From an uncultured Candidatus Saccharibacteria bacterium (GTDB lineage Bacteria > Patescibacteriota > Minisyncoccia > Phycocordibacterales > UBA9973): a stretch of DNA of 64,000 nt. The notes under the pieces were generated by a model, which saw nothing but the letters and a program-made list of their open reading frames with translations, was not told where the DNA came from and made no database searches. The position numbers and the translations under genes were made by a program. This document shows, in pieces, positions 11,383 through 49,788 of this stretch. How positions within the stretch are numbered: position 1 is the first letter of the stretch; every line of letters starts with the position of its first letter. The stretch lies in NCBI GenBank assembly GCA_964484005.1, contig CAZADR010000001.1, positions 43,927-107,926 of the forward strand, in the 5' to 3' direction.

Positions 11383-11631
11383 TTATTTTAATTTAGATTC
11401 TAACTCGTCAACTCTTACTTTTAGTTTATTATGATCTTCATATTTGACTCGAGTTACAACAAAATCATCTATTCTTTTATTTGTACCTTCGAGTTGGTTT
11501 TTAACACCTTTTATTTCTTCTTTAACTTCATTAATTCTTGTATCAATTTTTTCTTCTACCTTAGAAAAACTTCTATTTATTGATTCAAGTAATTCTTTGT
11601 TTGTTATTTCCTTTTCTTTTTTATTAGTCAT
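11383..11631 (-). CDS. Small coiled-coil hypothetical protein
   Basis: ORF only, with charged heptad-like sequence. Confidence 0.3.
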   Translation of the reverse strand: MTNKKEKEITNKELLESINRSFSKVEEKIDTRINEVKEEIKGVKNQLEGTNKRIDDFVVTRVKYEDHNKLKVRVDELESKLK

Positions 11632-11858
11632 TTTATTTATTTTCTTGATTTAATAATTTATGTTTCTTTAAAAAATCCAGAATCGGTTTTCCGCATTTTG
11701 AACAAAAATCTTTATCCGCAAAAAGACCCATGCCAGCCTTTACGGGATCGCCTTCTAATTTCTTTTTGCAAATATCACATTTCCTAACATTAATCCCTAA
11801 AGTATATCACACTCTAAAAGTCTAGTTATCCCCACTTTTTCTCTACATTTCCCTTTGC

Positions 11859-11867
11859 GGGGGGGGG
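11859..11867. repeat. G9 homopolymer tract in the promoter region of the giant surface-fibre gene
   Basis: Nine consecutive G in a roughly 33% GC genome. It lies between a TTGCGG -35-like hexamer (11855-11860) and a TAAAAT -10-like hexamer (11876-11881), 38 nt before the ATG at 11905. Confidence 0.9.
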
Positions 11868-11904
11868 TTATATGTTAAAATATATAGGTTAGCGAAATAT
11901 TAAT

Positions 11905-14900
11905 ATGCTCAAGAAACCATTTATAAAAAGATTACTTTTTTCAAGCTTTTTTGGTTTGTCGTTTTTCTTTGTGTTTTTCTTTTCTGCCGTTAATCCTGTT
12001 TCTGCTTTTGATTTTAATTTTGATCTAAACTCTACTACAATCAAAGCTTCCACTTTGTCTGCCAATTTATCAGAAAATGCTTGGGATTTTTATGTTGTTA
12101 ATGTGGTAGAGCCAACTAATAATGTTTTACAAGAAGTAATTAATTTTTTTCTAGATTCAAATACTTACCAAGTTGTTTTGCCAGAAACTCCACTCCAAAC
12201 AGTTACTTCTTTTTTAAACAATACTTATAACTCTTATAACAATTACATCTTAAGACCAGGCGTAGCAGCTATTGAAAAATCAAATGTAACTTTTACAAAA
12301 ATAACTGACAATATTACAGTACCCAAAATTAGTGTTCCCAAGGTGGGCATGGTAGCAAATGTATCAAGTATTATTGATGGTGTAAACAATTTCAGTAACA
12401 CTCTCTTTTCTCTCTACGACGAATATGTCATTGATCCTTTGGCACAATTGTGGGGAGGGATATTTTTTAATATTTCAAATAATTTAAACAAAGTACCGCC
12501 AACATCGGTAGTAAAAATAGAAACTCCTCCAGCCAAAACAGAGATAGAGCCTAAGCCTCTATCTGGGTCTCCAATAGTTTACCTAAACAATAATCCTTCA
12601 ACCAATCGAGGTCTACAGGGTCCTCAAGGAATACAAGGACCAATGGGGCCACAAGGACCCACTGGCGAGAGAGGTTCATCTGGGAGTGACGGTAATACGA
12701 TAGACACCTCTTCCTTCGTCTCTGAAACTGATTTTGATAATCAAGTAAATGCCCTCTTAAATTCTATTGAAAATGGTCTGTCAGGTTTGTCTGAATCTAT
12801 CTCTGAAGAAGTCAATACAGATTTACTGACAGTAGCAGGCAATGCCACTATCGGTGGAGATTTGATGGTCAATGGGCAAGGAATATTTACCCGAGTTCCC
12901 ACTCTGGCTCATGCCTTCGCTCCTTCATGGCCACTCGGTGTTTCTAATGTTGCCGATGCCACTCTCTACATTAATCCTGCTTCTTCAGTAGCAAGTGGCA
13001 ACTTGATTGGCGCTGCCATAAACGGCACAGTAAAATTCATCGTTGATGCTGACGGAAATGTTTATGCCAATAATATGATCCTAAATGGGAGCGTCACTAG
13101 TGGCGCGACGACTGTTTCCAGTTTGTCGGTGTTGGACAATACTATCCTAGGAGATGCTGGCGTAGATACGATTACGGTAAATGGCAGAATTAATTCTGAT
13201 TTAACCTTTACGACTGACAACACCAATGATATCGGAGCAAGCGGTGTTAACAGAGCTAGGACTGGATATTTTGGTACTTCCATAATTTCTCCTGTAGTCA
13301 ATGCCACCACCGGCGTGCAAATTGCAGGTGCCGCCACGACCGGCACAATCCTGCGTGGCAACGGTACAAATTATGTGCCTACCACCGCCACTTTTGCTGA
13401 TACATACACAGCCAGCAATTTGCTCTATTCCAACGGCGCGAATACTGTTGCCGGTTTAGCGACGGCTAATAGCGGAGTCTTGGTTACTAATTCAACCGGA
13501 GTGCCATCTATTTTAGGTTCTATGACCAACGGTCAATTAGTGGTCGGCTCAACCGGCGCGACTCCTGTTTTGGCAACAATTACCGGTACCACCGATCAAA
13601 TCGTCGTTACTAATGGCGCGGGCACAATTACTCTTTCTATTCCGCAAAGCATTAATACCACTTCTACTCCACAATTTGCCAGATTGGGGGTCGGAGTCGC
13701 GGCGGACGCTACCAATATTCTGACCGCCACCTCCGCTTCCGCCACCGACCTTTCTAAAACTTTAAATATAACTCACACCGGAGCAATTACTGGTACAGGT
13801 TATGCCGGATACTTTACAAAAACTGGAGTATCTACAACAAATGTCGGCCTTTATGCTACTGCAACGGGAGCTACAAATAATTATGCGGCGATATTTGAGA
13901 ACGGCAACGTCGGCATCGGGACGACGAATCCGGGGGCGAAGTTGTCAATCAACACTGATTATTGGAATAACGCATATTTTCCCGCTGGTACGGTTATCGG
14001 TGCATATTTAGGTGCAGCGTATGCAGGATTTTTTGCTAGTGGTGCGGGCGATACTTCTAGAATAACATTAGGAAATGGAGGAACTGGGTATCAGAGTTAT
14101 ATAGAAAATTTAGCGGGAGGAGCTGGTAGTCTTAGTATTGTCAATAACAATGGCCCTGTTTTGTTTAGTGGAACCGGCAACGTCGGCATCGGGACGACGG
14201 CACCAGTTCAAAAACTTGATATGGTGGTTGGGGCGGGAGATGGTACTCAAAATGAAGCTGTTGGTATCCGCTTACGAAATACTTCTGTTGTTGGTAATAC
14301 AAACACTTTACAAATAGGTCTTAATTCTACATTTAATGCTGGTGCAGCACAGCCAGGCTATGGTTACCTTCAATCAGTTTATTGGGGAGGAAGTGTCAAT
14401 GCCCTGATTTTGAATCCTCAAGGTGGTCCAGTTACAGTTGGAACTGCTACTGATTTTAATCCAGGAGGATTTTTAGTAAAGGGAATTACTTTAGTTTCTT
14501 CTCCTACTCGTGCTGGAAATACTTTAATGGGAGGACTAGGTTTTACACATGGAGCAGGATATACACCTATTTCCGCTTCCATTTATGGAATCTATGATAA
14601 ATCTGTATGGTCTCAAGGTGCGGGTTTAGTATTTAATACAGTTTCAGGGGCAGATATTTCAGGTTCATCTGGTGTCGAGAGAATGAGAATTAGCTCAGAC
14701 GGCAACGTCGGCATCGGGACGACGGGGCCAGGGTCTCATCTTCAGATTGACGGTAATATTTCAGCAGCATCTTGGACTACCGATGGTATAGCTTTTGATT
14801 CTAACGCCGCCACTTTCACAGACACCAGTACAGCCGGAGCAGGAACTGTAGCCGTAAGAACCGCTAACAGTTTCGGAGCACCAACTTTCGCATCTACAAA

Positions 14901-21257: not shown

Positions 21258-21295
21258 AAAATCCCCCACTTTTGGTAGGGGATTTTCGTTTTTTA
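21258..21295 (+). terminator. Rho-independent terminator
   Basis: aatccccc-acttttggta-ggggatt followed by ttcgtttttt. Confidence 0.5.
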
Positions 21296-21297
21296 CA

Positions 21298-21709
21298 GGT
21301 ATCTATAAGCCGAATTTTGTATTTAATGCCAAAGCATTATAGATAGCAATTTATCTAGGCCTGAAATTGCTCTCAGGCTCAAGCGATTCTCCCCCACACC
21401 TTTCGGAATGATGCGCATTTGCGCGTTGCTTTTAGCAACTTCATTCTGAAAGGTGTGGGGGCACGATCTTGCACAGAGGTAAGGGTTTAGCCGTTTCACC
21501 CTTCGACTTCGCTCAGGGCAAGCCCTAAGTTTATATGAAGATTTATCCATTTCTGGATACCCTAACCCTTTCGAGTTAAGACGTCTCTGCTCGCACCTAT
21601 GTATCACTACATACGGGGGTTACCCGCTACCATTCCCATCTCTTTCGAGACTCGCTGTGTTCGGACTTTCCTCTATATAGCTTGCGCCATATAGTAGCTA
21701 TCCGATACC
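21298..21709 (-). ncRNA. rnpB: RNase P RNA, bacterial type A, with an extended perfect hairpin insertion
   Basis: The minus strand carries AGGAAAGTCCGAAC (P4 5' strand), AGCGGGTAACCCCCG, AAGGGTGAAACGGC, GCTTGAG and GCAATTTCAGGCCTAGATAAATTGC (the CCUAGAUGAAUG region), and ACAAAATTCGGCTTA (P4 3' strand). A P1 pairing ggtatc/gatacc joins the ends. Confidence 0.8.
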
Positions 21710-21816
21710 TGCAAGGGTATTATACAACGCTTGCTTTATTTATTCAAGTATGATATACTATGTTTGTGAGTGTGAGGTTGTTCTCACATTTTTAAATAGA
21801 CAACATAAGTGCCGCA

Positions 21817-25022: not shown

Positions 25023-25096
25023 TCCGGGGTAGCTCAGCGGTAGAGCGGTCGCCTGTTAAGCGATTGGTCGTAGGTTCGATCCCTACCCCCGGAGCA
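25023..25096 (+). tRNA. tRNA-Asn (anticodon GUU); serves as an integration site
   Basis: TCCGGGGTAGCTCAGCGGTAGAGCGGTCGCCTGTTAAGCGAT...GTAGGTTCGATCCCTACCCCCGGAGCA. The last 14 nt overlap the 3' end of the serine recombinase ORF on the opposite strand. Confidence 0.9.
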
Positions 25097-26642
25097 ATGT
25101 TTTGTATTTAGTGCTATTTTCACTTTTTACCTTACTGGTATTAGGTTTTTTGAGTTCGAATTTATTTTGAGCGTCAATTCTCTCTTGAATCCTCTTTGAA
25201 ATCTTTTTTACTGAACTCTTTAAAACAGTATCAGCTTTCTTGTCTTTCAAGATTAGGTTCGCGAAAATGTGAGATAAGAGCAACCGGCGTTCTTCTGGGC
25301 TTCTCTTTTCGTATATTTCTCTGGCCCGGCGTGCGAGATCCAAGATGTTTATATACAACTCAAAATATTTTGTTTCCTCGTTCTTCAACTTGGTTATTTG
25401 ATTTTGGATTTCAGCTTGCTCGGTGTTTATCTCTTTCTGCTTCGCTTCCCACCTTTCTTGGGTTATTTTTTCGGACAATCTGTCATTGTAGAGTATATCC
25501 AGTTGCCTCTGTAAAGCGTTATAGCGAAGATCTAGGGCTTTAAGAGTATTTTCCTTGTATTCGGATTCTAGCTTATGATCTGCCTTAATTTTGTCCCTTA
25601 TGAGGTCTGCCTCTTTTTCAGTTATATTCTCAAAGAAACGGAATGCTCCTATCAAGGAAACATCCAGATCAGTTTCTTTAGTCATTCCTTTTTGGGAACA
25701 GGGCCGGTTGTGTTTGCAAGAATAATAAACAATTCCTTTTTGTATCTCACCACTTATTGAACCTCCACATTCTCCACACTCAATCATTTTACTGAACTGA
25801 AAGGTATGTCTTTTGTAATGCGGTGATTTACCTCGTGTAAGTGTAAATTGCACCTTATCAAAAAGCTCCTTCGATACCAACGGTTCGTGCTTTCCGTTAT
25901 GCACAAAATCGTTCCATCTTAATAATCCCATATAAAATGGGTCGCGTAGTATATCTTCCAATCTACTCTTTGAGAGCTTACTACCATTTCTAGTTCTTAA
26001 TCCATCCTCATATAATTTTTCCCGCAAACCAGTTAGAGAGTAATTTCTGGTTGCGTAATACTCAAATGCTTTCTTGATAAAGCGACTTTTATCTTCATCT
26101 ATGATATGAATTTTGTGTCCCTTTTCACCGATCGTTTTATATCCTATTGGAGGTTTTGCCGGTAGCCATCCCTGTGCAATTTTTTCTTTCTGACCCTTTT
26201 TAACTTCTTCCGAAAGATTAGAAATATACTTCTTCGCAAGGACTATTTCAATATCCCAACGAAACTTCTCGTCTGATTTGGCGTATCTGTGTATTACTAG
26301 ATTTTGTTTCACGAAATGTATCTGGTGTTTTTCGTCTGCCTCTATCCAATCATTCGCAGTTATTGCGTCCACAAAATTTCTTGTAAGACGATCCACCTTT
26401 TCACAAAGTAAAATAGGAACATCTTTCTTTTTTAGATATTCCATCATTTCCCCGAATATCTTTCTTTGCTTTGCGCCACTAGCAGATTCTGCCGGAGCGA
26501 ATGACCTAACTACCTCAAAACCTTTCCTGTTTGCATATTCTACAAGCAACTTCTCTTGGGAGGGCAAAGAATAACCAGTTTCTTCTTGTTCCTTTGAGGA
26601 TACTCTGCAATAAATTACGCATTTGATTCTAGTTAGATTCAT
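25083..26642 (-). CDS. Large serine recombinase (integrase), copy 1; C-terminus encoded within the tRNA-Asn 3' end
   Basis: VIYCRVSSKEQEETGYSLPSQ catalytic Ser region. DRLTRN. C-terminal zinc-ribbon and coiled-coil typical of large serine recombinases. The stop codon TAG lies at 25083-25085 inside the tRNA. Confidence 0.85.
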   Translation of the reverse strand: MNLTRIKCVIYCRVSSKEQEETGYSLPSQEKLLVEYANRKGFEVVRSFAPAESASGAKQRKIFGEMMEYLKKKDVPILLCEKVDRLTRNFVDAITANDWIEADEKHQIHFVKQNLVIHRYAKSDEKFRWDIEIVLAKKYISNLSEEVKKGQKEKIAQGWLPAKPPIGYKTIGEKGHKIHIIDEDKSRFIKKAFEYYATRNYSLTGLREKLYEDGLRTRNGSKLSKSRLEDILRDPFYMGLLRWNDFVHNGKHEPLVSKELFDKVQFTLTRGKSPHYKRHTFQFSKMIECGECGGSISGEIQKGIVYYSCKHNRPCSQKGMTKETDLDVSLIGAFRFFENITEKEADLIRDKIKADHKLESEYKENTLKALDLRYNALQRQLDILYNDRLSEKITQERWEAKQKEINTEQAEIQNQITKLKNEETKYFELYINILDLARRAREIYEKRSPEERRLLLSHIFANLILKDKKADTVLKSSVKKISKRIQERIDAQNKFELKKPNTSKVKSENSTKYKTLLRG

Positions 26643-26687: not shown

Positions 26688-27245
26688 TTAACCACCAGCT
26701 AAAAATGTCATTTTATCTCTTATTTCTTTTTTTCTTTTATTTATCTCTTCTTGCTCTTCCAAATTGCTTCCAAAGCATATATCTCTGTTTGTTTTCTCTG
26801 GGGTATTCTCTGTATAGATAGTTTGCTTAAATTTACTAGCCAGTTTGCAGGATTCAGCAAACTGGTTTGCGGACACTGGCATATTTATAAAAGATTTTAG
26901 TATAGCGACAAGTTTATTTTTGTTTATGTGGAAGTACCTCTTTCTAGGAATACCACGAAGTTCTACTTCAAGCACATCGAGTTTCTTCCAAATTTTTATC
27001 GCCTTTTCTTGTTGGCTTCTAGTTAAACAGCTTTCTTGGTAAATTTCCCTTATTGTTTTATAAGTCCAATCTGGGTCTGAACCTTTGTTATCCCAATAGA
27101 GTAACTGTGATAGAAAAAGCCCAGCAGTTGCACTTTTAGCTAATCTGCCGAGTATTGGATTAAATGCGATAGGTTTTGCACCCAATATTTCAATAATAAG
27201 AGAGTTGTAGTTTGTATTAGCCCTGCCTTGATTTTTGTTTTTCAT
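26688..27245 (-). CDS. Winged-HTH protein resembling the replication-initiator RepA_N / DnaD-like N-terminal domain
   Basis: ATAGLFLSQLLYWDNKG...WTYKTIREIYQESCLTRSQQEKAIKIWKKLDVLEV resembles the RepA_N pattern. Low-confidence family call. Confidence 0.4.
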   Translation of the reverse strand: MKNKNQGRANTNYNSLIIEILGAKPIAFNPILGRLAKSATAGLFLSQLLYWDNKGSDPDWTYKTIREIYQESCLTRSQQEKAIKIWKKLDVLEVELRGIPRKRYFHINKNKLVAILKSFINMPVSANQFAESCKLASKFKQTIYTENTPEKTNRDICFGSNLEEQEEINKRKKEIRDKMTFLAGG

Positions 27246-27623: not shown

Positions 27624-30041
27624 TTATTTATCGTTATCTTTCTTCTTCTTTTCAGCTTTAGGTTTTTTAGATTTTTCGCGAGCTATTTTTTCTTCCATTT
27701 CCTTGCCAAATTTACTATCCACAATAAAAGAACCCCACACTTCAAAAATAAATTTATCTATATCATATTGTTCAACAACTTGATACATCATTGCTTCTGC
27801 ATCATCGCGGATGCTCAATGATCCGTTAATACTTTCTCTTTCGTAATCATCGCGCCACCTCCATAATTCTCGTTTTAATTGATCCTTATGAGGTAATCCC
27901 AAAACATTGTGGTCTTCAGGATCAACTCCGGCAGGCAAATTAGTAAGGTGTTTTGCAAAATACTTTGCTTCAAATTCTGTGATTTTTATTTTCAGATCAG
28001 CAAATATATCCATCCATCCCTTTTTTAGAGCAATAATGCCTAAATAACAGGCCTTTTCTAAAACTCTTGGTTCGTTGTATCCATATCCTCTTGTAGTTTT
28101 TTGCAAAGTATCTTTTGTTATTGAATAAAGACAATTTATACAATCTTGAACGAGCGCTTTGTCTTCCAATTTTTCTGCTACAATTATGCCTGTTTTTGCA
28201 ACACTATCTGTAAGGGTGTTGAAAGGATTTGAGCCACCATCAAACTTCTCGGCGTGGCTTACAAAAAAACTTGGCAGGTGGATGTTCCAAGCTAGACGGC
28301 TTTTTAATTCAGTCACATCTTTTTTAAAATCATCATCTTGTATTAGATCAACTATAAGATTATTTATATTGAACAGAAGACGACCTATACTATCAGTAAG
28401 AGTTGTGTCACAGCTTTTTACTGTTTCCGATAAAATCCGCAAACTCATATTTAATTCACGAAAGAACTCTATTAGATTTCTTTTATACCTATCCTTTTCT
28501 CTTGTATCTGTAATTTTAGAATAATGTTCCATTATTACCGCAAGGGTGGTGTAAAACTCATCATAACCCTTACTTAAACTGAAACGAGTTTGTATATCGT
28601 CAGGAAGCAAACCAGCTTTAATAAAATTATTGATGTGATTTGCGATGGTAGCAATGTTTTTTAAAGCGCCCTTGATATGTATCTGTCTATCAATATCAGG
28701 ACTAGTAAATACTGCGCTAATGATACGAAGAAATGTCGTGGAACAGAGATCCACAATAATGGTTTGTTTTTGAGATAGACCATAAATGGCTACACTCATT
28801 ATTTTATCTAGTAGTCCGTGAAGTGTTAAAGAAAGTCCTTTCTGTGAAGCTATAACTGCGATATCACGAAGCACTTGCAAACCTTTATAAACGACCTCTA
28901 TATTTTTTGCTCGTTGTCCGCTTTCAATGTAAAAGTTTAAATTTCCCAGTATTAGATCTAATATGGGGTTTTCGTTTCTCTGGCTTATGAAAGTGATTTC
29001 TTGTGCCTTGCCTGCCAATCCGCGATAAATATCAATTATATAGGTAGCAAGTTCGTCCTTGCCATCTTTGATAAACTTTTCTCCCGCCTTATTTAATCTT
29101 TCAAGATTTTTATTAACGAAAGTTTGGCTATCACTTTCTACTGCAAGAAATACTGTGCCAGATGGTAGTATGAGGGATGAGGTTTTTCGTGCTTCAAAAA
29201 ATCTAATCAGTATTCTATAAACTGCTGTGAACCCTCGCTTGGTAGTGCCTACCTCTTGCTTGTCGCTTAATTTTAATGAAATCTCTACAAGATTTTCTAT
29301 TTGCCTATCAAGGTTTATCATAAACGGCTGTAAAAATTGATTATATGCTTGGGCAAGTCCCATATCGTTAGTGATAGAGGGATTTCTGGTGTGAAGCAAA
29401 TCAGCTAACCGTTCTGCATCGGATTGCAATTTATTTAAAAATCTCACTCCCTCTTTTTCTAAAAAAGAAATTGCTTCTGACGGGTTTAGTTTTTGCCGGA
29501 CATTTTTATATTGCCAATCTATCAAAGCAAAAACGGCTCCAACTAATACAAGAGATAACAATACTATTCCCGAACTGATGTTATGTAAAATTGTTGTTAA
29601 ACTTCCAACATAAAGCCCACCGCCTAAAAATAAGAGTGTGATAATTATCACTACAAAATAAACAAACTTTTCTTTCCAGTCGTGTATAAAAACCTCAAAA
29701 TACTGGGATGAGTAAAGCTCTGCCGCACTCTGAATAAGGAAAATTGAAATAGTGAATACTATCGCAATAGTGCCTCCGGTCATTGCTCCGAGAGCGACTA
29801 GATAATTGCTTAAAATATCTTGCGTAAAGTTTAGTCCGCCAAAATAATTTACTATTAAGCCAATACCAAGACCGATTACTAAAAAAGATAGTCGTCTCAT
29901 CCAGCCAAAATGTTTTCCCAGAGATGATAAAAATCTTTTCCATCTTCCCAGATATAACCACATTGTCAGCTTGTAGCTATATTTTAGGTATTGAAGCCAT
30001 CCCTGTTTCCACTCTTTTATTTCTGCTAATAAAAGTTTCAT
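27624..30041 (-). CDS. 805-aa polytopic membrane protein of unknown function with a large helical cytoplasmic domain and a K-rich C-terminal tail (element cargo)
   Basis: About 5 N-terminal transmembrane helices, a long alpha-helical region and a KSKKPKAEKKKKDNDK tail. No recognised catalytic motif. Confidence 0.6.
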   Translation of the reverse strand: MKLLLAEIKEWKQGWLQYLKYSYKLTMWLYLGRWKRFLSSLGKHFGWMRRLSFLVIGLGIGLIVNYFGGLNFTQDILSNYLVALGAMTGGTIAIVFTISIFLIQSAAELYSSQYFEVFIHDWKEKFVYFVVIIITLLFLGGGLYVGSLTTILHNISSGIVLLSLVLVGAVFALIDWQYKNVRQKLNPSEAISFLEKEGVRFLNKLQSDAERLADLLHTRNPSITNDMGLAQAYNQFLQPFMINLDRQIENLVEISLKLSDKQEVGTTKRGFTAVYRILIRFFEARKTSSLILPSGTVFLAVESDSQTFVNKNLERLNKAGEKFIKDGKDELATYIIDIYRGLAGKAQEITFISQRNENPILDLILGNLNFYIESGQRAKNIEVVYKGLQVLRDIAVIASQKGLSLTLHGLLDKIMSVAIYGLSQKQTIIVDLCSTTFLRIISAVFTSPDIDRQIHIKGALKNIATIANHINNFIKAGLLPDDIQTRFSLSKGYDEFYTTLAVIMEHYSKITDTREKDRYKRNLIEFFRELNMSLRILSETVKSCDTTLTDSIGRLLFNINNLIVDLIQDDDFKKDVTELKSRLAWNIHLPSFFVSHAEKFDGGSNPFNTLTDSVAKTGIIVAEKLEDKALVQDCINCLYSITKDTLQKTTRGYGYNEPRVLEKACYLGIIALKKGWMDIFADLKIKITEFEAKYFAKHLTNLPAGVDPEDHNVLGLPHKDQLKRELWRWRDDYERESINGSLSIRDDAEAMMYQVVEQYDIDKFIFEVWGSFIVDSKFGKEMEEKIAREKSKKPKAEKKKKDNDK

Positions 30042-30201
30042 AATAAGCTGTATCTTAACATTTTGGGCTTAAAAAATATACTGAAATTGGGTTTCTGGCA
30101 AAATCTCAAAAAATTGCAATAAGACAAGAGTAATTATATAATTATTGGATAACTTAATAAGAAAGACCTAAACCCTGTGGATGGCCTTAAAACTATAGGA
30201 T

Positions 30202-30316
30202 ATGGTCGCAAAGTCGGATCACGCATAAAGAACCCATCGCAGGGTTGCGTGATCCGCCATATCGGGAAACCGGTATGAGAGGTTTCGGCCTCTACCTGTG
30301 GTGGGCTTTTTGTTTT
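30202..30316 (+). ncRNA. Candidate structured RNA element A (unknown family), ending in a U-tract 12 nt before the ATG at 30328
   Basis: Nested hairpins ggatcacgc/gcgtgatcc and aaccc/gggtt, a GAAA-tetraloop hairpin cgg-gaaa-ccg, and agagg/cctct, followed by gggctttttgtttt. It is homologous to element B at 37884-37999, with compensatory substitutions in each stem. Confidence 0.35.
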
Positions 30317-30327
30317 AGTAAAATTAT

Positions 30328-31344
30328 ATGAAAAAATTCTGGCAAATATCGAAAATAGCAATAGCAAGTATAGCAATATTTTCATTTCTCGTTCTTGTAT
30401 TTTTAGTTATTATTGTTTGGGATGATACTGACACAGAAACATCACAAAATGCGGATTTTTTAGCTAAACAACAAGAAGCACTTAATAAAGCAATAGATGA
30501 GATCGAAACAAAATCAAATCTAGAAACAGATGAATTAAAGAAAGAGATTGAAAATTTAAAAAGTAAAACCACCAAACAAACTCAAAACCAACAACAAGCT
30601 AATAATAACATTGCTGAATTAAAGAATGAGTTAAAATCCACTGATGCTTTAGTTAATGAAAATTATGACGAACAATCTGATGTTGTCTTAGATTCCATTG
30701 CTAAAGTTGCTTGTTTTTTAACTAAAAATAAGACCATTTTTGGTTCGGGTTCAGTATGGGGCGTAGGTGATGATTATTATTTAGTTACCAATAAACACGT
30801 TTTAGAAGAAGCAGATAGAGAAGATGAAAGTTGCGCTATATCGATTGCTAGAGATTGGAATGCAGTGGCTAATGATGTTGAAAAGGCCTATCAAGATGAT
30901 AACTTACTTATATATAGTTTAGACCTGAATTATACCTATTGGGAGATAGATGGGTTTGATTTTGCAATCACTAAAATAATTGAAGATAAGCAACCACTCT
31001 CTTTTCTCGATGATATTGCGATGGAAACAAATGAGACTGAGTGTAATGAGAATTTAGGGGTTGGAGAAAAAATAAAAATTATAGGATTTCCTTATACTAG
31101 TTCTGTTGCTCTACCCACTATTACAGAAGGAATTATTTCAAGTTTTGAGTATATTGGTGATAGTAGTTACTATATAACATCTGCAAAAATTGAACACGGA
31201 AATTCTGGCGGAATGGCGGTAACTAATAACTATCATTGTCTGATAGGTATACCCTCTGCTGTTGTTGTCGGTGATTCAGAGAGTTTAGGAAGGATTCTTG
31301 TTTTAACAGAGAAAGATTTAAAAACTCTTTTTGATCAGATTTAG
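30328..31344 (+). CDS. Membrane-anchored trypsin-like (S1 family) serine protease with an N-terminal transmembrane helix and coiled-coil
   Basis: LVTNKHV (His), a conserved Asp, and the GNSGG (HGNSGGMAV) Ser motif. Confidence 0.65.
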   Translation: MKKFWQISKIAIASIAIFSFLVLVFLVIIVWDDTDTETSQNADFLAKQQEALNKAIDEIETKSNLETDELKKEIENLKSKTTKQTQNQQQANNNIAELKNELKSTDALVNENYDEQSDVVLDSIAKVACFLTKNKTIFGSGSVWGVGDDYYLVTNKHVLEEADREDESCAISIARDWNAVANDVEKAYQDDNLLIYSLDLNYTYWEIDGFDFAITKIIEDKQPLSFLDDIAMETNETECNENLGVGEKIKIIGFPYTSSVALPTITEGIISSFEYIGDSSYYITSAKIEHGNSGGMAVTNNYHCLIGIPSAVVVGDSESLGRILVLTEKDLKTLFDQI

Positions 31345-33680: not shown

Positions 33681-35345
33681 TTAATACGCTAAAAGTGACT
33701 TTATTTCAGCCAATGCTATACTAGGAAAAGGATATTCTTCGAGCCAATTTATAGTTCGAAAGTCGTCCACAATACCGAGCAATGTTTTGTATTTATAGTC
33801 AAAATCAGACTTTTGTATTGGAGATACAAGGCTTTTTTGTAGTTCGTAGACTTCATTTAGCTTAGGAATCCATTCAAGCAGATATTTGCATGCTAAATTG
33901 TAATTTGGCTTTATTTCATTTACGTTTTGTGCGAAGTTCGTAAATAATTGAGCAAACAATAACCTCTTTTCATCTGTAAGTGCTTGCTCGTAAATTTCTT
34001 TAGCCTTGAAAGCTAATTCGTGGATTATTAAACGCAACTCTTGGTAATCATCGCTTTGGCTAACAACTTTTTCAAGCGTAGATTCAAGGGCATCTTCTTC
34101 AGTTTTACATTCAGCAATCTTTCTTTCGCAATATTCAAGTGGTACTTCTTTGTTTATTGTTGCCTCAAAATATTTATCTTTCTGTTTTCTTATGCTTGTG
34201 AGTAGCCCATTCAGTCTTTGAATTTCAGTTTCCCTTAACTTCACATTCTCAGCATTTTCTTCCAAGATAATTCCTTCAATCCATTTTAGTACCGCTTCAT
34301 TCTTAGGGGCTATTTTAAAGAATACGGGGTCTACCTGCTTTTCTACTTCTTCCTCCTTGATATAGGTCTTTTTGGTGCAATGACGAGATTTTAAGTGGTT
34401 ATTACAATGTCCATAAAGAATACCTTTTTGTGTTTCCCAGCTCAATACTCCGCCACAACCATCACAAAAGATTTTTCCTTGAAATAAATAATTGTGCTTG
34501 GTGGTAATAACATTTTTACCTCTTCTTTTAAGAACACTTTGTGCTTTCTCAAATAAGTCTTTGGTAATTAAAGGCTTGTGTTTTGCTGGGTATATTTCAC
34601 CTTTCCATTTCATTTTGCCATAGTAGAATGGGTCTTGAAGTAATTCATAGATTCTACTTTGTAAAACTTTATTTCCATTTGTTGAACGAAGCCCCGTTTT
34701 ATACATTTCATCCTCAAGACTTTGTATAGAATAGTTTCCCGTAGCATATAGCTCAAACATTTTTCTAATATGCGGAGCAACCCCATCATCAATCACATGT
34801 ATTTTGTGTCCTTTGTCCCCAATAGTTTTATATCCAGTTGGTGGTTTGGTTGGCAACCATCCTTGTGCTATTTTTTCTTTCTGCCCCTTTTTCACTTCTT
34901 CGGAAAGGTTAGCTATATATTTCTTTGCAAGAACAATCTCAATATCCCAACGAAATTTTTCGTCCGATTTGGCATACTTGTGTATTACAAGGTTCTGCTT
35001 AACAAAGTGAAGCTGTCTTTCTTCATTAGCCTCAATCCAATCATTTGCTACGACTGCTTCCTTGAGGTTTCTGGTGAGTCGGTCAACTTTTTCACACAAA
35101 AGAATTTGAATATTATTTTTTCCCATATAGCCCATCATTTCAGCAAAGATTTTTCTTTGTTTTGTTCCACTTGCAGATTCTGCAACAGAAAAAGGTTTTG
35201 CCACTTCAAAACCTTTTCTATTTGCATATTCAATTAGTAATTTTTCTTGCGAGGGAAGCGAGTACCCCGTATCCTCTTGTTCTTTTGATGATACACGGCA
35301 ATAAATAACGGCTTTATTCTTTGTGTTTTTTATTTGAGTTTTCAT
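33681..35345 (-). CDS. Large serine recombinase (integrase), copy 2, full length
   Basis: VIYCRVSSKEQEDTGYSLPSQ...DRLTRN, roughly 60-70% identical to copy 1 over the catalytic domain. An internal site at 33777-33795 repeats the copy-1/tRNA junction sequence. Confidence 0.85.
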   Translation of the reverse strand: MKTQIKNTKNKAVIYCRVSSKEQEDTGYSLPSQEKLLIEYANRKGFEVAKPFSVAESASGTKQRKIFAEMMGYMGKNNIQILLCEKVDRLTRNLKEAVVANDWIEANEERQLHFVKQNLVIHKYAKSDEKFRWDIEIVLAKKYIANLSEEVKKGQKEKIAQGWLPTKPPTGYKTIGDKGHKIHVIDDGVAPHIRKMFELYATGNYSIQSLEDEMYKTGLRSTNGNKVLQSRIYELLQDPFYYGKMKWKGEIYPAKHKPLITKDLFEKAQSVLKRRGKNVITTKHNYLFQGKIFCDGCGGVLSWETQKGILYGHCNNHLKSRHCTKKTYIKEEEVEKQVDPVFFKIAPKNEAVLKWIEGIILEENAENVKLRETEIQRLNGLLTSIRKQKDKYFEATINKEVPLEYCERKIAECKTEEDALESTLEKVVSQSDDYQELRLIIHELAFKAKEIYEQALTDEKRLLFAQLFTNFAQNVNEIKPNYNLACKYLLEWIPKLNEVYELQKSLVSPIQKSDFDYKYKTLLGIVDDFRTINWLEEYPFPSIALAEIKSLLAY

Positions 35346-37578: not shown

Positions 37579-37883
37579 TTCTAGATTGTATTACAAAAAG
37601 TTCTAAAATCCCACCATTTTTCAGATGAGTATATTCGGTGTATCCTCTTTCATTTGGGTGTCCTCCCCCCGTACCCCTTATCAAATAAGAATATTACTAA
37701 TAGTAAATATTAAAATATAGATGTCGTAATGTAAGCTGTATTTGCTTATAGAAAGGCTATAACAACCTCTTTAATGGTCTATAAACACGCTATAAACCCT
37801 TATTGATGGTAAATTTATAGAAAGGTGCTATTATTGTTTTATAACTTAATATAAGAGTAGCCTAAACTTTTGTAGACAAAAGC

Positions 37884-37999
37884 ATGGTGAACGAAGTCAG
37901 GTAATGCATAAAAAACCCTTCATGGGGTCGCATTACCTGCCGTACAGGGAAACTTGTATGAGAGACTTAGGTCTCTACCCGTGAGGGGCTTTTTGTTTG
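37884..37999 (+). ncRNA. Candidate structured RNA element B, homolog of element A
   Basis: Same architecture as A with covarying stems: aggtaatgc/gcattacct, cagg-gaaa-cttg, agagac/gtctct, then gggctttttgtttg. Confidence 0.35.
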
Positions 38000-39866: not shown

Positions 39867-40220
39867 ATGAAAAAGATAATCCTCACGTTAATAATCCTAG
39901 CTCTAACTATCCCTGTTATTTCTTTTGCTCATTCTGGTAGGACTGATTCTTCGGGCTGTCATACTTGCCGTACAAATTGCCCTAATTGGGGTCTAGATTA
40001 TGGAGAATATCATTGTCATAGGTCAAAAGGCGTTGCTCAGCCTCTAGAGCCAGTTAGAAGCATTAGAAATGAAGGTGGTGTGGGACAAACTGTTCCAGCC
40101 CCTGAATATAAAATTCCAGCCAATACTGTAAATACGCCAGCAATAAATACAACTCCAACGCCCTCAACCCAAACAGAAAAAAAGAGCTGGATTGTAAGAT
40201 TTTTTAGCTGGTTGTTTTAA
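39867..40220 (+). CDS. Small secreted His/Cys-rich protein
   Basis: Signal peptide. HSGRTDSSGCHTCRTNCPNWGLDYGEYHCH is a metal-binding-like motif. Confidence 0.4.
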   Translation: MKKIILTLIILALTIPVISFAHSGRTDSSGCHTCRTNCPNWGLDYGEYHCHRSKGVAQPLEPVRSIRNEGGVGQTVPAPEYKIPANTVNTPAINTTPTPSTQTEKKSWIVRFFSWLF

Positions 40221-40230
40221 GTAAAATTTT

Positions 40231-40638
40231 ATGAAAAAAATTTTAAAATATTTTGGATTCATTATTTTGGTTCTTATTGGATTGTTTTTATTTGTTGCTA
40301 ATTTTTCTTCTATCAAATCAAATTTTCAATGCTCTGGTAAAATAACCTATCAAGAGACAACAGAATCAAAAACTATTTATATTATATTAGAAGAATATAG
40401 ATGGTGGGTAGGTCTTTGGGGTGATTCAGATGGTAATATGAAACTAGAAATTCCTAATGAGGATTTTGATTATTTTGATTCCATATTAGAAAATGGTAAT
40501 CTGCTTTCTATCTTTAAAACTTCTTATAATCCAAACCCAGAAAAAAAACTAGTTGGAAATTTTTCAACACTAAGTAAAACGTTAGATTTAGATACATCCT
40601 TTGGTGTTTTTAGTGGTTCTTGTAATATTATTAATTAG
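40231..40638 (+). CDS. Small secreted / membrane-anchored hypothetical protein
   Basis: N-terminal transmembrane helix or signal peptide. Confidence 0.4.
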   Translation: MKKILKYFGFIILVLIGLFLFVANFSSIKSNFQCSGKITYQETTESKTIYIILEEYRWWVGLWGDSDGNMKLEIPNEDFDYFDSILENGNLLSIFKTSYNPNPEKKLVGNFSTLSKTLDLDTSFGVFSGSCNIIN

Positions 40639-40942: not shown

Positions 40943-42502
40943 ATGCCACCGAATAAAGACCAAAAGGTAAAACTAACTTTTTCAGACTATTTTAATATCC
41001 CAAAAGAAACTTTAAAACAAGAGGGCTATTTTGATATTTCCCTCGCATCAGATTTACCAGTTTTTATTGACCCTTTTCACCTTTTTTATAGCAAAAAATT
41101 GGCTTATAAAAAACTTCACGAAGATATAATTAAATATCTAATTTTTCTCAAAGAAACTTCAAAAAATAATGGAAATAAACTATCAAACGGAATGATTGAG
41201 GAATACTATAGTTTTCATGAAGTAGAACAGACATGGTTAGGTTTTAGTGTTAAAGACAATAAGGGGCATGGGCTAGGAAAAAAGTTTGCTAAAGCACTTA
41301 ACGCAAATTTTAATGCCATGTTTGATGATTTTGGTGTTGGCATTAGTTCCCATCATCTTGAAAAGCTTACTCTTGTTTCAGATAATGTTGGCAAGGATAC
41401 TATCAGTGATTTTACTACGAATTTAATTTTAGGATACCTTGCTAAAGAAACAGAAAAATTTACCTTAAAACATATTGAAGAAAAACAAAGACAAAAATTT
41501 GCAGTTGAAAAAGCCGAATTTGACTACGAAGATAAAACTTGGACATCAAAAGTATTTACTTTACCAATATTCAATCAAGATTTTGTTTTGTTAACACCAA
41601 TAGATTTATTAACTAAAGATGAAACATGGATAAATAAAAATGAACTGCTTGATAAGTTTTCAGAAATCCCTTACTCTATTTCTAACCAAGCCCTAAGAGA
41701 AAAACTTTCTAGGTATTTTCAATCAAGAATTATTACTAATTCACCAAGCAAGATAGATAAAAAAACTGGCAAGGAGGTTATAAACATAACTCAAAAATCA
41801 AAGAGAATTTCAGCAAAAGAAACCATAACAGAATTCCCAGAGGCTATAGATTACTATATTAAAAAGAAAGAAGAAAATGGAGAACAAGCAATTAAGGGTG
41901 GGCTTGAAAAAGTTGCAGAAACCCGACAATTTGTTGAAGAGCAGTTTAGAGATTTTGCCACACTAGTTGAAAGCCATGGTGGTTTAAGCACAAAAAGACC
42001 CTCTTCTTTTGAAGAATCTCTAAAAGCAAGTCTTTACTTTAAGGAATGTGTTGAACTGCACGATGGATATAAAAATTTATATTACAAAGATTCTGTTTCG
42101 GGTCTAATTCCTCATGATGAACCCTCAATACAAAGATTGTATTGGTTTGTTTGGAACGGAAATTCAAGTGATTTAAACAAAGAAGTTTCAAATGGCTTGG
42201 GAACTGTTGACTACACAGCCTCTAATGGCAAAAAGGATAAAACACTTATTGAATTTAAGCTTGCTAGTAGTGGCTCTCTGAAAGATAATTTAAAAAATCA
42301 GCTAGAAAAGTATAAAGAAGTAAACAAAACAAAAAAAGGAATATGGATAATAATATTTTTTACTGCTGACGAAGAATTTAAATTAAAAACAATTCTTAGG
42401 GAACTTGAAATGGATAAAGTGGAAGGTATTATTCTTGTGGACGCAAGGTTAGATAACAAAATTACTGCGTCAAAAATCAAATCTTTAAAATCCAATGAGT
42501 AA
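40943..42502 (+). CDS. Hypothetical 519-aa protein, first gene of a two-gene operon with an Mrr-cat-like nuclease
   Basis: No recognised domain. The C-terminal segment GTVDYTASNGKKDKTLIEFKLA could be a PD-(D/E)xK-like motif. It overlaps the next gene by 8 nt. Confidence 0.45.
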   Translation: MPPNKDQKVKLTFSDYFNIPKETLKQEGYFDISLASDLPVFIDPFHLFYSKKLAYKKLHEDIIKYLIFLKETSKNNGNKLSNGMIEEYYSFHEVEQTWLGFSVKDNKGHGLGKKFAKALNANFNAMFDDFGVGISSHHLEKLTLVSDNVGKDTISDFTTNLILGYLAKETEKFTLKHIEEKQRQKFAVEKAEFDYEDKTWTSKVFTLPIFNQDFVLLTPIDLLTKDETWINKNELLDKFSEIPYSISNQALREKLSRYFQSRIITNSPSKIDKKTGKEVINITQKSKRISAKETITEFPEAIDYYIKKKEENGEQAIKGGLEKVAETRQFVEEQFRDFATLVESHGGLSTKRPSSFEESLKASLYFKECVELHDGYKNLYYKDSVSGLIPHDEPSIQRLYWFVWNGNSSDLNKEVSNGLGTVDYTASNGKKDKTLIEFKLASSGSLKDNLKNQLEKYKEVNKTKKGIWIIIFFTADEEFKLKTILRELEMDKVEGIILVDARLDNKITASKIKSLKSNE

Positions 42503-43337
42503 AAAAACAAAAGAAGAAGAGGTAGATGAAATAAAACAAAAAAGTGGGCATGGGCTTCATCTTAAAGTTGCCAACTATCTTGAATCTAAGGGTTGGGAAG
42601 TTGTTATTGGTCAATATTATATTGATATTGCAACTGGTTTATCTCGTGATTTAGATATACTTGCGACAAAGTATTTTCCAATAGCTGATAGCGGTACAAA
42701 CCTAAGAATTCGCTTTTTTATTGAATGCAAATATGTAGAAAATATAAATGTTGTTTGGTTCACACCAAAAGATTTAAAAAAGTCGCAGGCTCTTATTGCG
42801 GATACTGGTTTAATGAGAGGAAGTGAAGAACATGAAATGCGTATTGCAAATCCAGCAAGTTATATGCCTCTTTATCATCATTATATGGAAAATTCTCCTG
42901 TGGCTAAATTAACTGATAAAAAAGGTCAACAAGACATATTCTATCAAGGTGTTAATAGCTCTGTTCATGGAATGATTGCATTAAGAAACACTAACTACGA
43001 AAGGTTCAGTTTTGATTATCCAGTAATAGTTTTTGATTCTTTTGAGAAAATATTCCGTGCGACTGAAGACAATAAAAATATAGAAATTACTGAAAATTTT
43101 CAACGAGCCATTGATTACTCATATAAGCAAGAAGACCAGCTCAAAAGTAAGTATTTTATAATTGACATTGTGTCTTTTGAGTTAATAGACTCATTTTTAG
43201 AAAACATAGAAAAAGCGGATGTAGAGATTATGAAAAGTAAGGCATTCTCTCAGATTAAGGAAGAAAGATTTCAAGAAAGAATGCATAATATAAATAGGTA
43301 TTCTAATGATGACCCCTTTAATGATTACGGTATTTAA
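42495..43337 (+). CDS. Restriction-endonuclease-fold (Mrr catalytic-domain-like PD-(D/E)xK) protein
   Basis: GHGLHLKVANYLESKGWEV ... RDLDILA ... FIECKY matches the Mrr_cat pattern (G.G..E..L...G..V ... D.DI.A ... (Q/E)CK). Confidence 0.5.
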   Translation: MSKKTKEEEVDEIKQKSGHGLHLKVANYLESKGWEVVIGQYYIDIATGLSRDLDILATKYFPIADSGTNLRIRFFIECKYVENINVVWFTPKDLKKSQALIADTGLMRGSEEHEMRIANPASYMPLYHHYMENSPVAKLTDKKGQQDIFYQGVNSSVHGMIALRNTNYERFSFDYPVIVFDSFEKIFRATEDNKNIEITENFQRAIDYSYKQEDQLKSKYFIIDIVSFELIDSFLENIEKADVEIMKSKAFSQIKEERFQERMHNINRYSNDDPFNDYGI

Positions 43338-47425: not shown

Positions 47426-47493
47426 TAGAAAAATGTTCAAATTCTATTAGGTTTTGTTTTTAAAGGTTTAATTATTAGTTTAATAAAAAATAT

Positions 47494-49788
47494 ATGAAAA
47501 AATATTTCTTATCTAGTTTAGGTTTTATGGTTTTAGGTTCTCTCTTGGTCGGACAAAGTGCATTAGCAGCGACAAATCCTGTCACGGGAAGCGTTGGTAG
47601 TATTACGCAAACTGATGCTATTTTGAATGGTACAAATGGAGACACTGATGCTATTGGGCATTCTTTCTGGGTATCTGATTCAACTTTTGCAACAGATTCT
47701 CCAACAATACCTCCAGGAGTTTATTCCACAGTTGATATGGGTGCGATAGCAGCTGGAGCTTCTTTTTCTGCTTCACTAACAAGTGACTTTACTGGATTTC
47801 CAGGAGCTACTGCAAATACTCCCTATTACTTTGCTGCATGGTCAAATGTAAGCGGTACTTGGTATCCAGGTGAAGTTTTAAGTTTTACGACACTTCCTGG
47901 CCCTGTTTTTATTGACACAAACTCAAATTCAGTATTTGATGAAGGAGAATTAGATTTTGACACCATAGAAGCCGCGGTAAGTGCCTCTGTTCCTGGTGAT
48001 ATTATTATTGTAACTGAAGGCCCTTTTGTATTAAATAGCACAATAAATTTAAACAAAGATATTACCTTAAAAGGGATGGGGAATCCACTTATTCAAGTAT
48101 CTGGTTCTAATATTCTTTTTAACGTTTCGGCAACAGGGGTTACAATTCAAGGATTTCAAATTCAGAAGACAGATAAATTGAGTCAAACCTTAATTCACAT
48201 AGCTTCTAGTGATACCACAATAGAAAGTAATGAAATTTTTGGTGATTATGTAGTTGGAGAGGGTGATGTAGCTCGAGCAATGGTTTTACAGGGAGGTCTT
48301 ACTGGTATAAATATTGCAAATAATACTATTCACGATTTACGCCAACCTGCATATGTTAGTGGAGTTACCACAGGAACTGTTTCTAATAATTATGTGTATA
48401 AGACTAAGGGGTGGGTTATAGAACAAGGAGATCTAACTTTTACAGATAACACTTGGGGGGAAGGGGCGAATGCAAACGTATACGACATTGCTATTCTTGC
48501 GACGGTTGGGGCTTCTTATTATACAAATATTCCAGCAATGTCTGCCGCAAACAATGATGCTTCTATAGAAGATCAACGTGGAGTTTCTGCCACTCTTTCT
48601 CTGGTATATGTTGATGGATCAGTGGAGGTGAGTGGAACCGGGACACAAAATAGCCCAAAGAAAACTCTTACAGAAGGGGTGATGCGTGTTGTGGAAGGCG
48701 GAAAGATTGTTCTTCTCTCTAATCTTTCTACTGCTTCAACCGTAGAAATAAATAAATCTTTAACACTCGAAGGTGGAGACAGTACTCTTACTGCTTCTGC
48801 GGGTTTGACGGGTACTGTTCTACTAATTACTTCAAATGATGTGACAGTAAAAAATCTTACTGTGGATGGAGGGGGGCTACCAGTACAAGGGATTCAGGCT
48901 TACAAAGTTACCGGTATCCTTTTGGATAATATAACTGCTCAAAATACTGGAAAGTCTGGCATTATGGTAAACGGCTCTACTTTGACTGTAAATAATGTAG
49001 AAACTCTTAACAATAACTGGCACGGAATAAACGTAGATCAAGGTTCAGGAGTTACTACTCTTGCAGAACTTACAGTAAATGGCACAAGTGTCCATACTGA
49101 AGTAGGCCCAGATATATTCGTAGATAACAATACAAAAGGATCTGTTGTGGATAATAATGACCAATATAGTACTGTTCCGGTGGGTCTTGGGACGGCTTAC
49201 TACCTTTTTACTAAATTTACTCTTACCTATATTGCAGGTGCTAATGGCTCAATAACAGGAAACTTGTCTCAAGACGTGATTGAAGGACAAGACGGAACAA
49301 CCGTTACTGCGGTTGCTAATGACGGATATCATTTTGATAGTTGGAGTGACGGACTTACTACAGCTGCTAGAACTGATACGAATGTAACTGGAGCACTTTC
49401 ATTTACTGCGAATTTTGCAATAGATCAATCTTCTGGTGGTAATAGTGGAAGCAGGAGAGCCACTCCTGCTACTCCTGCAACCCCAGCTGTTCCTGGAGTA
49501 AGTCCCGCAACACCAGCAACACCTGCTACCCCCGGTCAGGTTCTCGGTGCGGAGAAGTTTATCTTTACACTTTTCTTGAAAAAAGGTCCACCCTATAATG
49601 TAGGTACACAGGGGAATGAAGTCATGGAACTTCAGAAATTCTTGAATGCAGCAGGTTTTGGTATATTGGCAGTTGATGGGAAATTTGGACCATTAACCGA
49701 AGCGGCTGTTATCAAATTCCAATTAGCAAATGGACTCGTAGGAGATGGAATAGTAGGACCTCTCACTAGAGCAGTGTTGAATAAATAA
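47494..49788 (+). CDS. Secreted right-handed beta-helix (pectate-lyase-fold-like) protein with a PT-rich linker and a C-terminal peptidoglycan-binding domain
   Basis: Signal peptide. Repeated NNTIHD / SNNYVY / TDNTWG beta-helix rungs. ATPATPATPAVPGVSPATPATPATPG linker. C-terminal GNEVMELQKFLNAAGF...DGKFGPLTEAAVIKFQ (PG_binding_1). Confidence 0.7.
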   Translation: MKKYFLSSLGFMVLGSLLVGQSALAATNPVTGSVGSITQTDAILNGTNGDTDAIGHSFWVSDSTFATDSPTIPPGVYSTVDMGAIAAGASFSASLTSDFTGFPGATANTPYYFAAWSNVSGTWYPGEVLSFTTLPGPVFIDTNSNSVFDEGELDFDTIEAAVSASVPGDIIIVTEGPFVLNSTINLNKDITLKGMGNPLIQVSGSNILFNVSATGVTIQGFQIQKTDKLSQTLIHIASSDTTIESNEIFGDYVVGEGDVARAMVLQGGLTGINIANNTIHDLRQPAYVSGVTTGTVSNNYVYKTKGWVIEQGDLTFTDNTWGEGANANVYDIAILATVGASYYTNIPAMSAANNDASIEDQRGVSATLSLVYVDGSVEVSGTGTQNSPKKTLTEGVMRVVEGGKIVLLSNLSTASTVEINKSLTLEGGDSTLTASAGLTGTVLLITSNDVTVKNLTVDGGGLPVQGIQAYKVTGILLDNITAQNTGKSGIMVNGSTLTVNNVETLNNNWHGINVDQGSGVTTLAELTVNGTSVHTEVGPDIFVDNNTKGSVVDNNDQYSTVPVGLGTAYYLFTKFTLTYIAGANGSITGNLSQDVIEGQDGTTVTAVANDGYHFDSWSDGLTTAARTDTNVTGALSFTANFAIDQSSGGNSGSRRATPATPATPAVPGVSPATPATPATPGQVLGAEKFIFTLFLKKGPPYNVGTQGNEVMELQKFLNAAGFGILAVDGKFGPLTEAAVIKFQLANGLVGDGIVGPLTRAVLNK

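Follow-up and report, generated by a model that had tools for sequence, protein, structure and literature searches.

Two related elements in a 64,000-nucleotide (nt) stretch of DNA from an uncultured Candidatus Saccharibacteria bacterium (contig CAZADR010000001.1; the whole stretch is called the window below) are genes for LOOT RNA, a family already catalogued in Rfam as RF03000. The two elements therefore represent no new class, and their novelty as an RNA class is nil. What our analysis adds is a host and a genomic context for this orphan family, namely Patescibacteria and serine-recombinase islands that appear to integrate at tRNA genes, together with a covarying long-range helix that ties the LOOT fold to a U-tract and a likely tetraloop-receptor contact. 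The conserved strand that follows P4, the last hairpin of the Rfam model, pairs with the apex of hairpin P2 in a helix, here called S2, that lies outside the model. To explain these features as a whole we favor, with modest confidence, a LOOT RNA of serine-integrase islands in bacteria of the Candidate Phyla Radiation (CPR) that would build its own terminator from S2, in competition with a local hairpin, P2b. The mobile elements and gene regulation of CPR bacteria are poorly known, and annotation would gain from a conserved RNA that marks one family of elements; the curated RF03000 model could, moreover, be extended at both ends.

A scan of the whole window with Rfam 15, in which the gathering score of RF03000 is 46.4 bits, returned two full-length matches with E-values of ~1e-12, both ~30 bits above the gathering score. 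The copies and their parts are as follows:

30165-30293 (+): LOOT RNA copy A, P1 to P4, as far as the Rfam model goes; 74.3 bits, model positions 1-121 of 121
30165-30207 (+): P1 of copy A, with internal loop CCUAAA (30167-30172) / UAUGG (30201-30205)
30215-30224 with 30247-30256 (+): outer 10-bp helix of P2, copy A, GGATCACGC / GCGTGATCC
30225-30231 (+): A-rich internal loop of P2, copy A, AUAAAGA
30231-30246 (+): apical hairpin P2b, copy A, AACCC-ATCGCA-GGGTT
30258-30277 (+): P3 hairpin, copy A, CGG-GAAA-CCG, with its GAAA tetraloop at 30266-30269
30278-30293 (+): P4 hairpin, copy A, AGAGGT-TTCG-GCCTCT, loop UUCG
37859-37976 (+): LOOT RNA copy B, P1 to P4; 76.4 bits, model positions 1-121 of 121; GAAA loop of P3 at 37949-37952
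37859-37888 (+): P1 of copy B

The initial annotation of this region had reported no match to a known family and had itself named an Rfam match as the outcome that would speak against it; RF03000 matches both copies over their full length, and nine of nine sampled homologs also pass the Rfam cut-off for LOOT. The hairpins that had been described within 30202-30316 are all present, and the 3′ part of the proposed extent stands, whereas the 5′ boundary had been placed ~37 nt short and missed stem P1. The LOOT motif comes from the survey of Weinberg et al. 2017 (PMC5737381), and the main text of that paper contains no discussion of it; Rfam lists LOOT as a metagenome-based RNA (PMC7779021). The searchable literature, which does not extend to the supplement of the discovery paper, yielded nothing on the function, host or genomic context of the family.

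In both copies the parts follow the same order: P1, an A-rich linker, a long P2 carrying P2b, P3 with its GAAA loop, and P4. The copies thus share with the Rfam model the P1 motif CCUAAA...AUGG, the A-rich linker, a long P2 topped by a hairpin, a P3 closed by GAAA, and P4. The model stops there, whereas the element as delimited here continues on the 3′ side with a conserved strand, complementary to the P2 apex, that leads into the U-tract, and on the 5′ side it probably takes in a conserved 11-mer. The P4 loop varies within the family (UUCG, UUAG, GAAA, GCAA and GUAA), and the loops of copies A (UUCG) and B (UUAG) are unlike the GNRA consensus.

Several tests uphold the proposal that this is a functional structured RNA with covariation. 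Compared with dinucleotide shuffles, copies A and B have z-scores of -4.0 and -4.8, and none of 200 shuffles was equally stable. Pairwise alignment of the two copies places four double, compensatory changes in P2, one in P3 and one in P4; the homolog previously delimited at 37884-37999 retains each helix. A covariance model built from copies A and B, as the initial annotation had proposed, recovers further homologs, and these covary. In an alignment of 26 homologs, which was fitted to the covariance model and so leans towards structure, pairing holds in 97.4% of cells and both sides have changed in 36 of 38 pairs, a count that none of 500 shuffles matched; slid controls gave 30-45%. Within this alignment the outer helix of P2 covaries at nine of its ten pairs, and the P2b hairpin covaries as well.

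The internal loop of P1, conserved throughout the homologs, resembles the 11-nt GAAA-tetraloop receptor. The classical form of this receptor is CCUAAG...UAUGG, as in the P4-P6 domain of the Tetrahymena group I intron, and the P1 loop of LOOT (CCUAAA / AUAUGG in copy A, CCUAAA / GCAUGG in copy B) agrees with it at 9-10 of 11 positions. LOOT keeps CCUAA and AUGG invariant, as well as an asymmetric internal loop 2 bp from the helix end, and the family consensus is CCUAA[A/C]...[C/U]AUGG. The two variable positions are correlated, with A6 accompanied by C7 in 22 sequences and C6 by U7 in 11, leaving three exceptions, such that the G-U pair of the classical receptor becomes A-C or C-U. The sole universally conserved hairpin loop of LOOT, that of P3, is GAAA in all 37 sequences inspected, and a strict automatic test confirms it in at least 135 of 146. 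We infer from these resemblances that the GAAA loop of P3 may dock into the receptor-like loop of P1, either within or between molecules.

A long-range helix between the P2 apex and the 3′ tail

Beyond P4, the 3′ flank of LOOT is conserved across ~13 nt, followed by GCUUUUUG, and these 13 nt are complementary to the P2 apex. The corresponding features in the window are:

30295-30316 (+): 3′ tail of copy A, GGGCTTTTTGTTTT
30295-30305 with 30233-30243 (+): helix S2 of copy A, 11 bp, tail strand CCUGUGGUGGG with P2 apex CCCAUCGCAGG
30307-30316 (+): U-tract of copy A, UUUUUGUUUU, following a C after S2; likely transcript end (predicted)
37978-37988 with 37916-37926 (+): helix S2 of copy B, tail strand CCCGUGAGGGG with P2 apex CCCUUCAUGGG, followed by a U-tract; whole tail 37978-37998

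Between copies A and B, 5 of 11 S2 positions have changed, and every change is compensated. The helix has a predicted energy of -20.0 kcal/mol in copy A and -20.2 kcal/mol in copy B, and cross pairing between the copies reaches just -11.5 / -12.6 kcal/mol. The same preference is seen across 146 sequences, in which the core/tail duplex averages -21.0 kcal/mol for cognate versus -14.3 kcal/mol for non-cognate combinations; the cognate tail ranks in the top 10% for 128 of them, which none of 2000 permutations equaled, and the S2 site always lies at 55-61% of the core length. From a plain MAFFT alignment of 50 extended sequences, RNAalifold recovers S2 unprompted. Considered alone in a MAFFT alignment not fitted to it, S2 is 96% paired, carries double changes at 9 of 11 pairs, and has a covariation score of 0.67, compared with 0.25 for shuffles and 0.04-0.16 for slid controls. 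One S2 pair is U-G in 43 of 50 sequences, and the frequency of such pairs argues that S2 acts at the RNA level, on the + strand. Together with P2, S2 makes up an H-type pseudoknot, and it excludes P2b.

S2 is G+C-rich and ends 1 nt before the U-tract, which stands behind it in 140 of 146 sequences; the helix is probably the stem of an intrinsic terminator. LOOT shares with intrinsic (Rho-independent) terminators that have an upstream A-tract an A-rich stretch, a G+C-rich stem and a U-tract 1 nt after the stem, but its stem strands lie ~60 nt apart, the intervening "loop" holds the 3′ strand of P2 along with P3 and P4, and the 5′ strand of the stem is first locked in a hairpin. A local hairpin before the U-tract had also been a candidate for the terminator; with -1.6 (A) and -4.9 (B) kcal/mol, and 75% paired in homologs, it is superseded by S2. 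RNAalifold further proposed a full 19-bp helix in which S2 is continued by pairing of an A-tract with the U-tract. This fold and the P2 fold are nearly isoenergetic (-58.1 vs -59.8 kcal/mol), and because strands would be linked by 2-3 nt, the longer helix is incompatible with the outer helix of P2 (on geometric reasoning rather than computation); we retain it just as an alternative or post-release state. Minimum-free-energy folds of single sequences also joined the A-rich linker to the U-tract in a helix, which we rejected because it has no cognate preference (-2.7 vs -2.9 kcal/mol, permutation p = 0.76). The 5′ strand of P1b in copy A, CCTGTGGATGGC (30174-30185), is like the tail CCTGTGGTGGGC (30295-30306) with two mismatches, a resemblance at chance level (28 of 100 shuffles give at least two matches).

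At the other end of the element, a predicted promoter and a conserved 11-mer precede P1:

30114-30142 (+): sigma-70-like promoter of copy A (predicted), TTGCAA, 17 nt, TATAAT; 10/12 matches
30149-30159 (+): conserved 11-mer of copy A, ATAACTTAATA
37829-37851 (+): corresponding region of copy B, with a -10-like TATTAT (37829-37834) and the 11-mer ATAACTTAATA (37841-37851); repeat family D19, aligned with 30137-30159

The 11-mer has the family consensus ACAAYTKAATA, stands a median of 7 nt before P1, and was found in 72 of 109 loci selected by LOOT motifs (see below) versus 3.3% of random 40-nt windows, a ~20-fold enrichment. It probably belongs to the RNA as the single-stranded 5′ start of the transcript: a -10 hexamer stands 5-8 nt ahead of it in most homologs, which argues that transcription starts there, and two homologs carry a GNRA hairpin inserted between the 11-mer and P1, which argues that the 11-mer is transcribed. 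At its 3′ end, the tail of copy A reaches 30316, 12 nt before an ATG at 30328, as had been read from the sequence before. Loci were classifiable if their downstream flank measured at least 600 nt; of these 128, 78 have a co-directional gene that begins no more than 120 nt downstream, 20 have a convergent next gene, and 5 have no downstream gene. Loci of the Microgenomates type carry a promoter of their own after the U-tract (TTGACA-17/18-TAACAT), and this arrangement, along with the convergent next genes, argues that LOOT is a separate gene.

LOOT RNA and the integrase module of CPR elements

Two samples, collected from opposite directions, bear on the genomic setting of LOOT. For the first, alignment of both integrases of the window, which are large serine recombinases, yielded 80 loci of ~21 kb from species-representative genomes, nearly all of them metagenome-assembled genomes (MAGs) of Patescibacteria/CPR. 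The covariance model, rebuilt from its 26 hits and run on these loci, found a single LOOT in each of 35 of them. Its distance upstream from the integrase 5′ end is 0.9-5.7 kb in every case, and the rest of the loci hold none; the RNA is divergent from the integrase in 31 cases and co-directional in 4. The shared layout has the integrase, replication or helix-turn-helix (HTH) genes, small open reading frames (ORFs) and a variable ORF on one strand, and LOOT followed by variable cargo on the other. As in the window, the 3′ end of the integrase gene adjoins a tRNA gene at three loci (L055, L029 and L019).

The second sample started from a pattern of LOOT motifs alone and yielded 135 loci from viral and metagenome contigs, 113 of which are true by the model; true LOOT is present in 7 of the 15 IMG/VR viral contigs included. 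Of the 46 loci that are 7 kb or longer, 32 encode a serine recombinase, as do, by tblastn, 14 of the 19 whose upstream flank reaches 6 kb or more. The recombinase invariably stands either upstream and divergent or downstream and co-directional, and at 11 loci the divergent integrase starts just 144-220 nt from LOOT. A short exact pattern, GGGAAACNNGTATGAGAG, tried on viral contigs, gave 11 loci that are all chance matches without LOOT. Genes near LOOT include those for the large (PHROG 38, E = 2e-81) and small terminase subunits, DNA methylases, type III restriction helicases and a reverse transcriptase; across the islands, the cargo takes in secreted enzymes, restriction-modification systems, reverse transcriptases and terminase genes. 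From gene content and layout we infer that LOOT marks serine-integrase elements of CPR bacteria that resemble temperate phages or satellites.

The window conforms to this layout. Two tandem islands adjoin a tRNA-Asn gene (25023-25095, +), and each LOOT copy heads the rightward genes of one island, which bears out the earlier placement of the elements where minus-strand genes give way to plus-strand ones, here a leftward integrase module and rightward cargo.

A few observations from these samples stand apart. A reverse transcriptase gene (RVT_1, E = 4e-26) lies convergent just downstream of LOOT in several compact elements that combine integrase and LOOT (L105, 8093-9145, -; L101; L202; cluster c29). 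Locus L019 holds a group I intron (11594-11903, -, 85.9 bits) just downstream of the integrase and near a tRNA (12749-12821), possibly an intron-containing tRNA target of the kind reported for Patescibacteria (PMC13011429). Several contigs with CPR-type integrases (L053, L056, L039 and others), a number of them with LOOT, are titled Gammaproteobacteria, Bathyarchaeia, Caldisericia or Bacteroidetes; these are probably mis-binned contigs of mobile elements.

A proposed mechanism and its rivals

One explanation for these results, and the one towards which we cautiously lean, is that each LOOT copy is the gene of a small structured RNA that would fold its own terminator. A promoter belonging to each copy, placed back to back with the module of integrase, replication and regulator genes that runs leftward, would drive rightward transcription, and the transcript would begin at ACAAYUKAAUA. 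S2, rather than the feeble local hairpin, would terminate transcription; with S2 as the terminator stem, the RNA would make its own 3′ end and accumulate at ~165 nt. P2b would compete with S2, and P2b winning would allow read-through into the variable cargo genes. In the window, the cargo genes after LOOT have no promoter of their own, and the first of them after copy A would depend on read-through because the 12-nt gap to the U-tract leaves no room for a promoter; given this spacing and the many co-directional genes that start within 120 nt at other loci, it is read-through that would have to feed the cargo genes. Since the partnership with the integrase module is fixed, the released RNA might serve in the control of lysogeny or element maintenance, or bind a protein.

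This explanation must be weighed against several points. From promoter and start site to termination and read-through, the transcription scheme is a prediction. A distance of ~60 nt between the S2 strands is unusual for a terminator, and folding may be too slow to stop the polymerase; alternatively, the pseudoknot with S2 could have a purely structural role in the mature RNA. P2b covaries alongside S2, and either of the two may be the native state. The putative docking of P3 into P1 is read from sequence resemblance, with the G-U of the canonical receptor replaced by A-C or C-U, and searches of element loci with the 11-mer and the apex found no trans target or partner. As for the link to integrases, the integrase-selected sample is biased by design, the LOOT-selected sample covers the CCTAAAC/GCATGG/GCTTTTTG subtype only, and 14 of its 46 long loci are without a recombinase, although 6 of these have less than 4 kb of upstream flank.

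One may postulate an alternative scenario, which we consider unlikely, in which LOOT is a protein-gated attenuator or an RNA partner of element proteins, with a phage protein binding the P2b apex or the body of the RNA and controlling read-through or recombination. The steady association of LOOT with the serine integrase module, whose integrase gene in compact elements starts right beside LOOT and diverges from it, is consistent with such a role, as is the apex/tail sequence, which differs between two islands of one genome and is compensated within each; a divergent neighbor also resembles a winged-helix DNA-binding regulator by sequence, without a family match. The neighbors of LOOT other than the integrase are not conserved, however, the proposed contact between protein and RNA is purely hypothetical, and we know of no RNA cofactor for any large serine recombinase. 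We give similarly little credence to a more ambitious reading, in which LOOT would be the dedicated riboregulator of a large undescribed group of serine-integrase temperate phages and satellites of CPR bacteria. In this reading a body organized by the tetraloop-receptor contact would gate the formation of the pseudoknot terminator, with the gate set by a protein of the element, perhaps its integrase or the directionality factor, or else LOOT would itself be an integrase cofactor; if true, RNA folding would be coupled to the decision between lysogeny and excision or to the expression of prophage cargo.

A structured non-coding RNA next to the recombinase gene of a mobile element is known in the bridge RNA of IS110 and in other guide RNAs linked to recombinases. 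LOOT is likewise a structured RNA beside such a gene, but its recombinase belongs to another family, the large serine recombinases, and it is without free programmable loops: the sole variable loop is taken by its own tail, and there is no match to the attachment region. A role of LOOT as a recombinase guide RNA found no support in a light test, in which tail and apex had no further match in the window, the tRNA-Asn region included.

The initial annotation had considered a riboswitch or leader, or a small RNA; a small RNA or a leader is compatible with our data, while the case for a riboswitch is weak. As a cis-acting riboswitch or leader, LOOT would let a ligand pick P2b (read-through) or S2 (termination) and so control the downstream genes for secreted and membrane proteins. 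The mutual exclusion of P2b and S2, which both covary and adjoin the U-tract, speaks for such a switch, as do the frequency of close co-directional genes and the lack of promoter room before the gene that follows copy A; tetraloop-receptor folds are, in addition, known in several riboswitch aptamers. We nevertheless regard this reading as rather improbable. Universal conservation is confined to CCUAA/AUGG, GAAA and the tail, while the junctions are variable, 0-2 nt long and without a visible ligand pocket, and the downstream families are unrelated (protease, MltG-like, methylase, reverse transcriptase and small membrane proteins); without a conserved junction pocket or a conserved class of downstream gene, a metabolite riboswitch is unlikely. 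Convergent next genes, loci without a downstream gene, and the separate promoter after the U-tract at Microgenomates-type loci count against it as well.

Among temperate elements, the CI RNA of P4, the c4 RNA of P1/P7 and the put RNA of HK022 are structured, lie close to their promoters and affect transcription termination; LOOT resembles them in its placement and structure. It differs from put RNA, which suppresses terminators, in that LOOT would form one. An antisense or immunity RNA of the P4 CI or P1 c4 type, pairing through the 11-mer or the P2 apex with transcripts of the element or the host, appears to us quite improbable. LOOT is located in the lysogeny region of temperate elements, it carries a conserved, single-stranded 5′ 11-mer, and its apex pairs with a downstream site on the same transcript, much as seqB of P4 pairs with seqC downstream on the same transcript. 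Yet our target search, which covered element loci (within 9 kb), recovered no repeated antisense target sites: the 11-mer has no consistent complementary site at gene starts in 20 loci, its duplexes (-3 to -10 kcal/mol) involving different genes each time, and, its own tail aside, the apex meets no more complementary sites within 9 kb than background (182 seen vs 197 expected from non-cognate controls). LOOT has no sequence or model similarity to these RNAs, and the Rfam c4 families gave no match in the window scan.

That LOOT is instead a DNA-level element, such as an attachment site, an origin or operator palindromes, is barely credible: although its place is a regulatory region between genes in a mobile element with a replication initiator of its own, the many G-U pairs in its helices would be A-C mismatches on the opposite strand, the GNRA and UUCG loops, the promoter before them and the U-tract after them all belong to one strand, the likely attachment site lies at the other end of the island, beside the tRNA, and neither the tail sequence nor its complement recurs anywhere else in the window, the region of tRNA-Asn included.

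Genes of the two islands

The window holds an RNase P RNA and three tRNAs and is on that account chromosomal; the RNase P RNA is of bacterial class A (21290-21713, -) and scores 116.8 bits, modestly over the cut-off of 100. The same contig is found in several metagenome assemblies. The principal genes of the islands are:

25083-26642 (-): large serine recombinase, island 1; 3′ end overlaps tRNA-Asn
26688-27245 (-): DnaD/O-like replication protein, island 1
27624-30041 (-): 805-aa ORF divergent from LOOT copy A, with hydrophobic N-terminal segments
30328-31344 (+): secreted trypsin-like protease, first cargo gene after LOOT copy A
33681-35345 (-): large serine recombinase, island 2; 50% identical to that of island 1
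40943-42502 (+): 519-aa protein, PADLOC candidate defense family PDC-M36A, E = 8e-18
42495-43337 (+): 280-aa ORF overlapping the gene for the 519-aa protein, without matches

The overlap of tRNA-Asn with the recombinase gene of island 1 is likely the attachment site of the tandem islands. The 805-aa ORF has no Pfam, PHROG or PADLOC match, and it is unrelated to the 244-aa ORF that occupies the same divergent position relative to LOOT copy B. In island 1 the protease gene is followed by genes for small membrane proteins. Besides its recombinase, island 2 holds an unannotated 183-aa ORF, whose relatives by neighbor clustering adjoin integrases at other loci, an HTH_17 excisionase-like protein, a replication-protein fragment and the 244-aa ORF, after which comes LOOT copy B. 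Small secreted or membrane ORFs and the candidate defense gene follow; the 519-aa protein and the 280-aa ORF are probably defense cargo of this island.

Finally, three gene starts in the islands (30309-30337, 40212-40240 and 47475-47503; repeat family D6) share TTTGTTTTAGTAAAATTATATGAAAAAA-like sequences without a Shine-Dalgarno motif, which suggests either Shine-Dalgarno-independent initiation or a shared start context.

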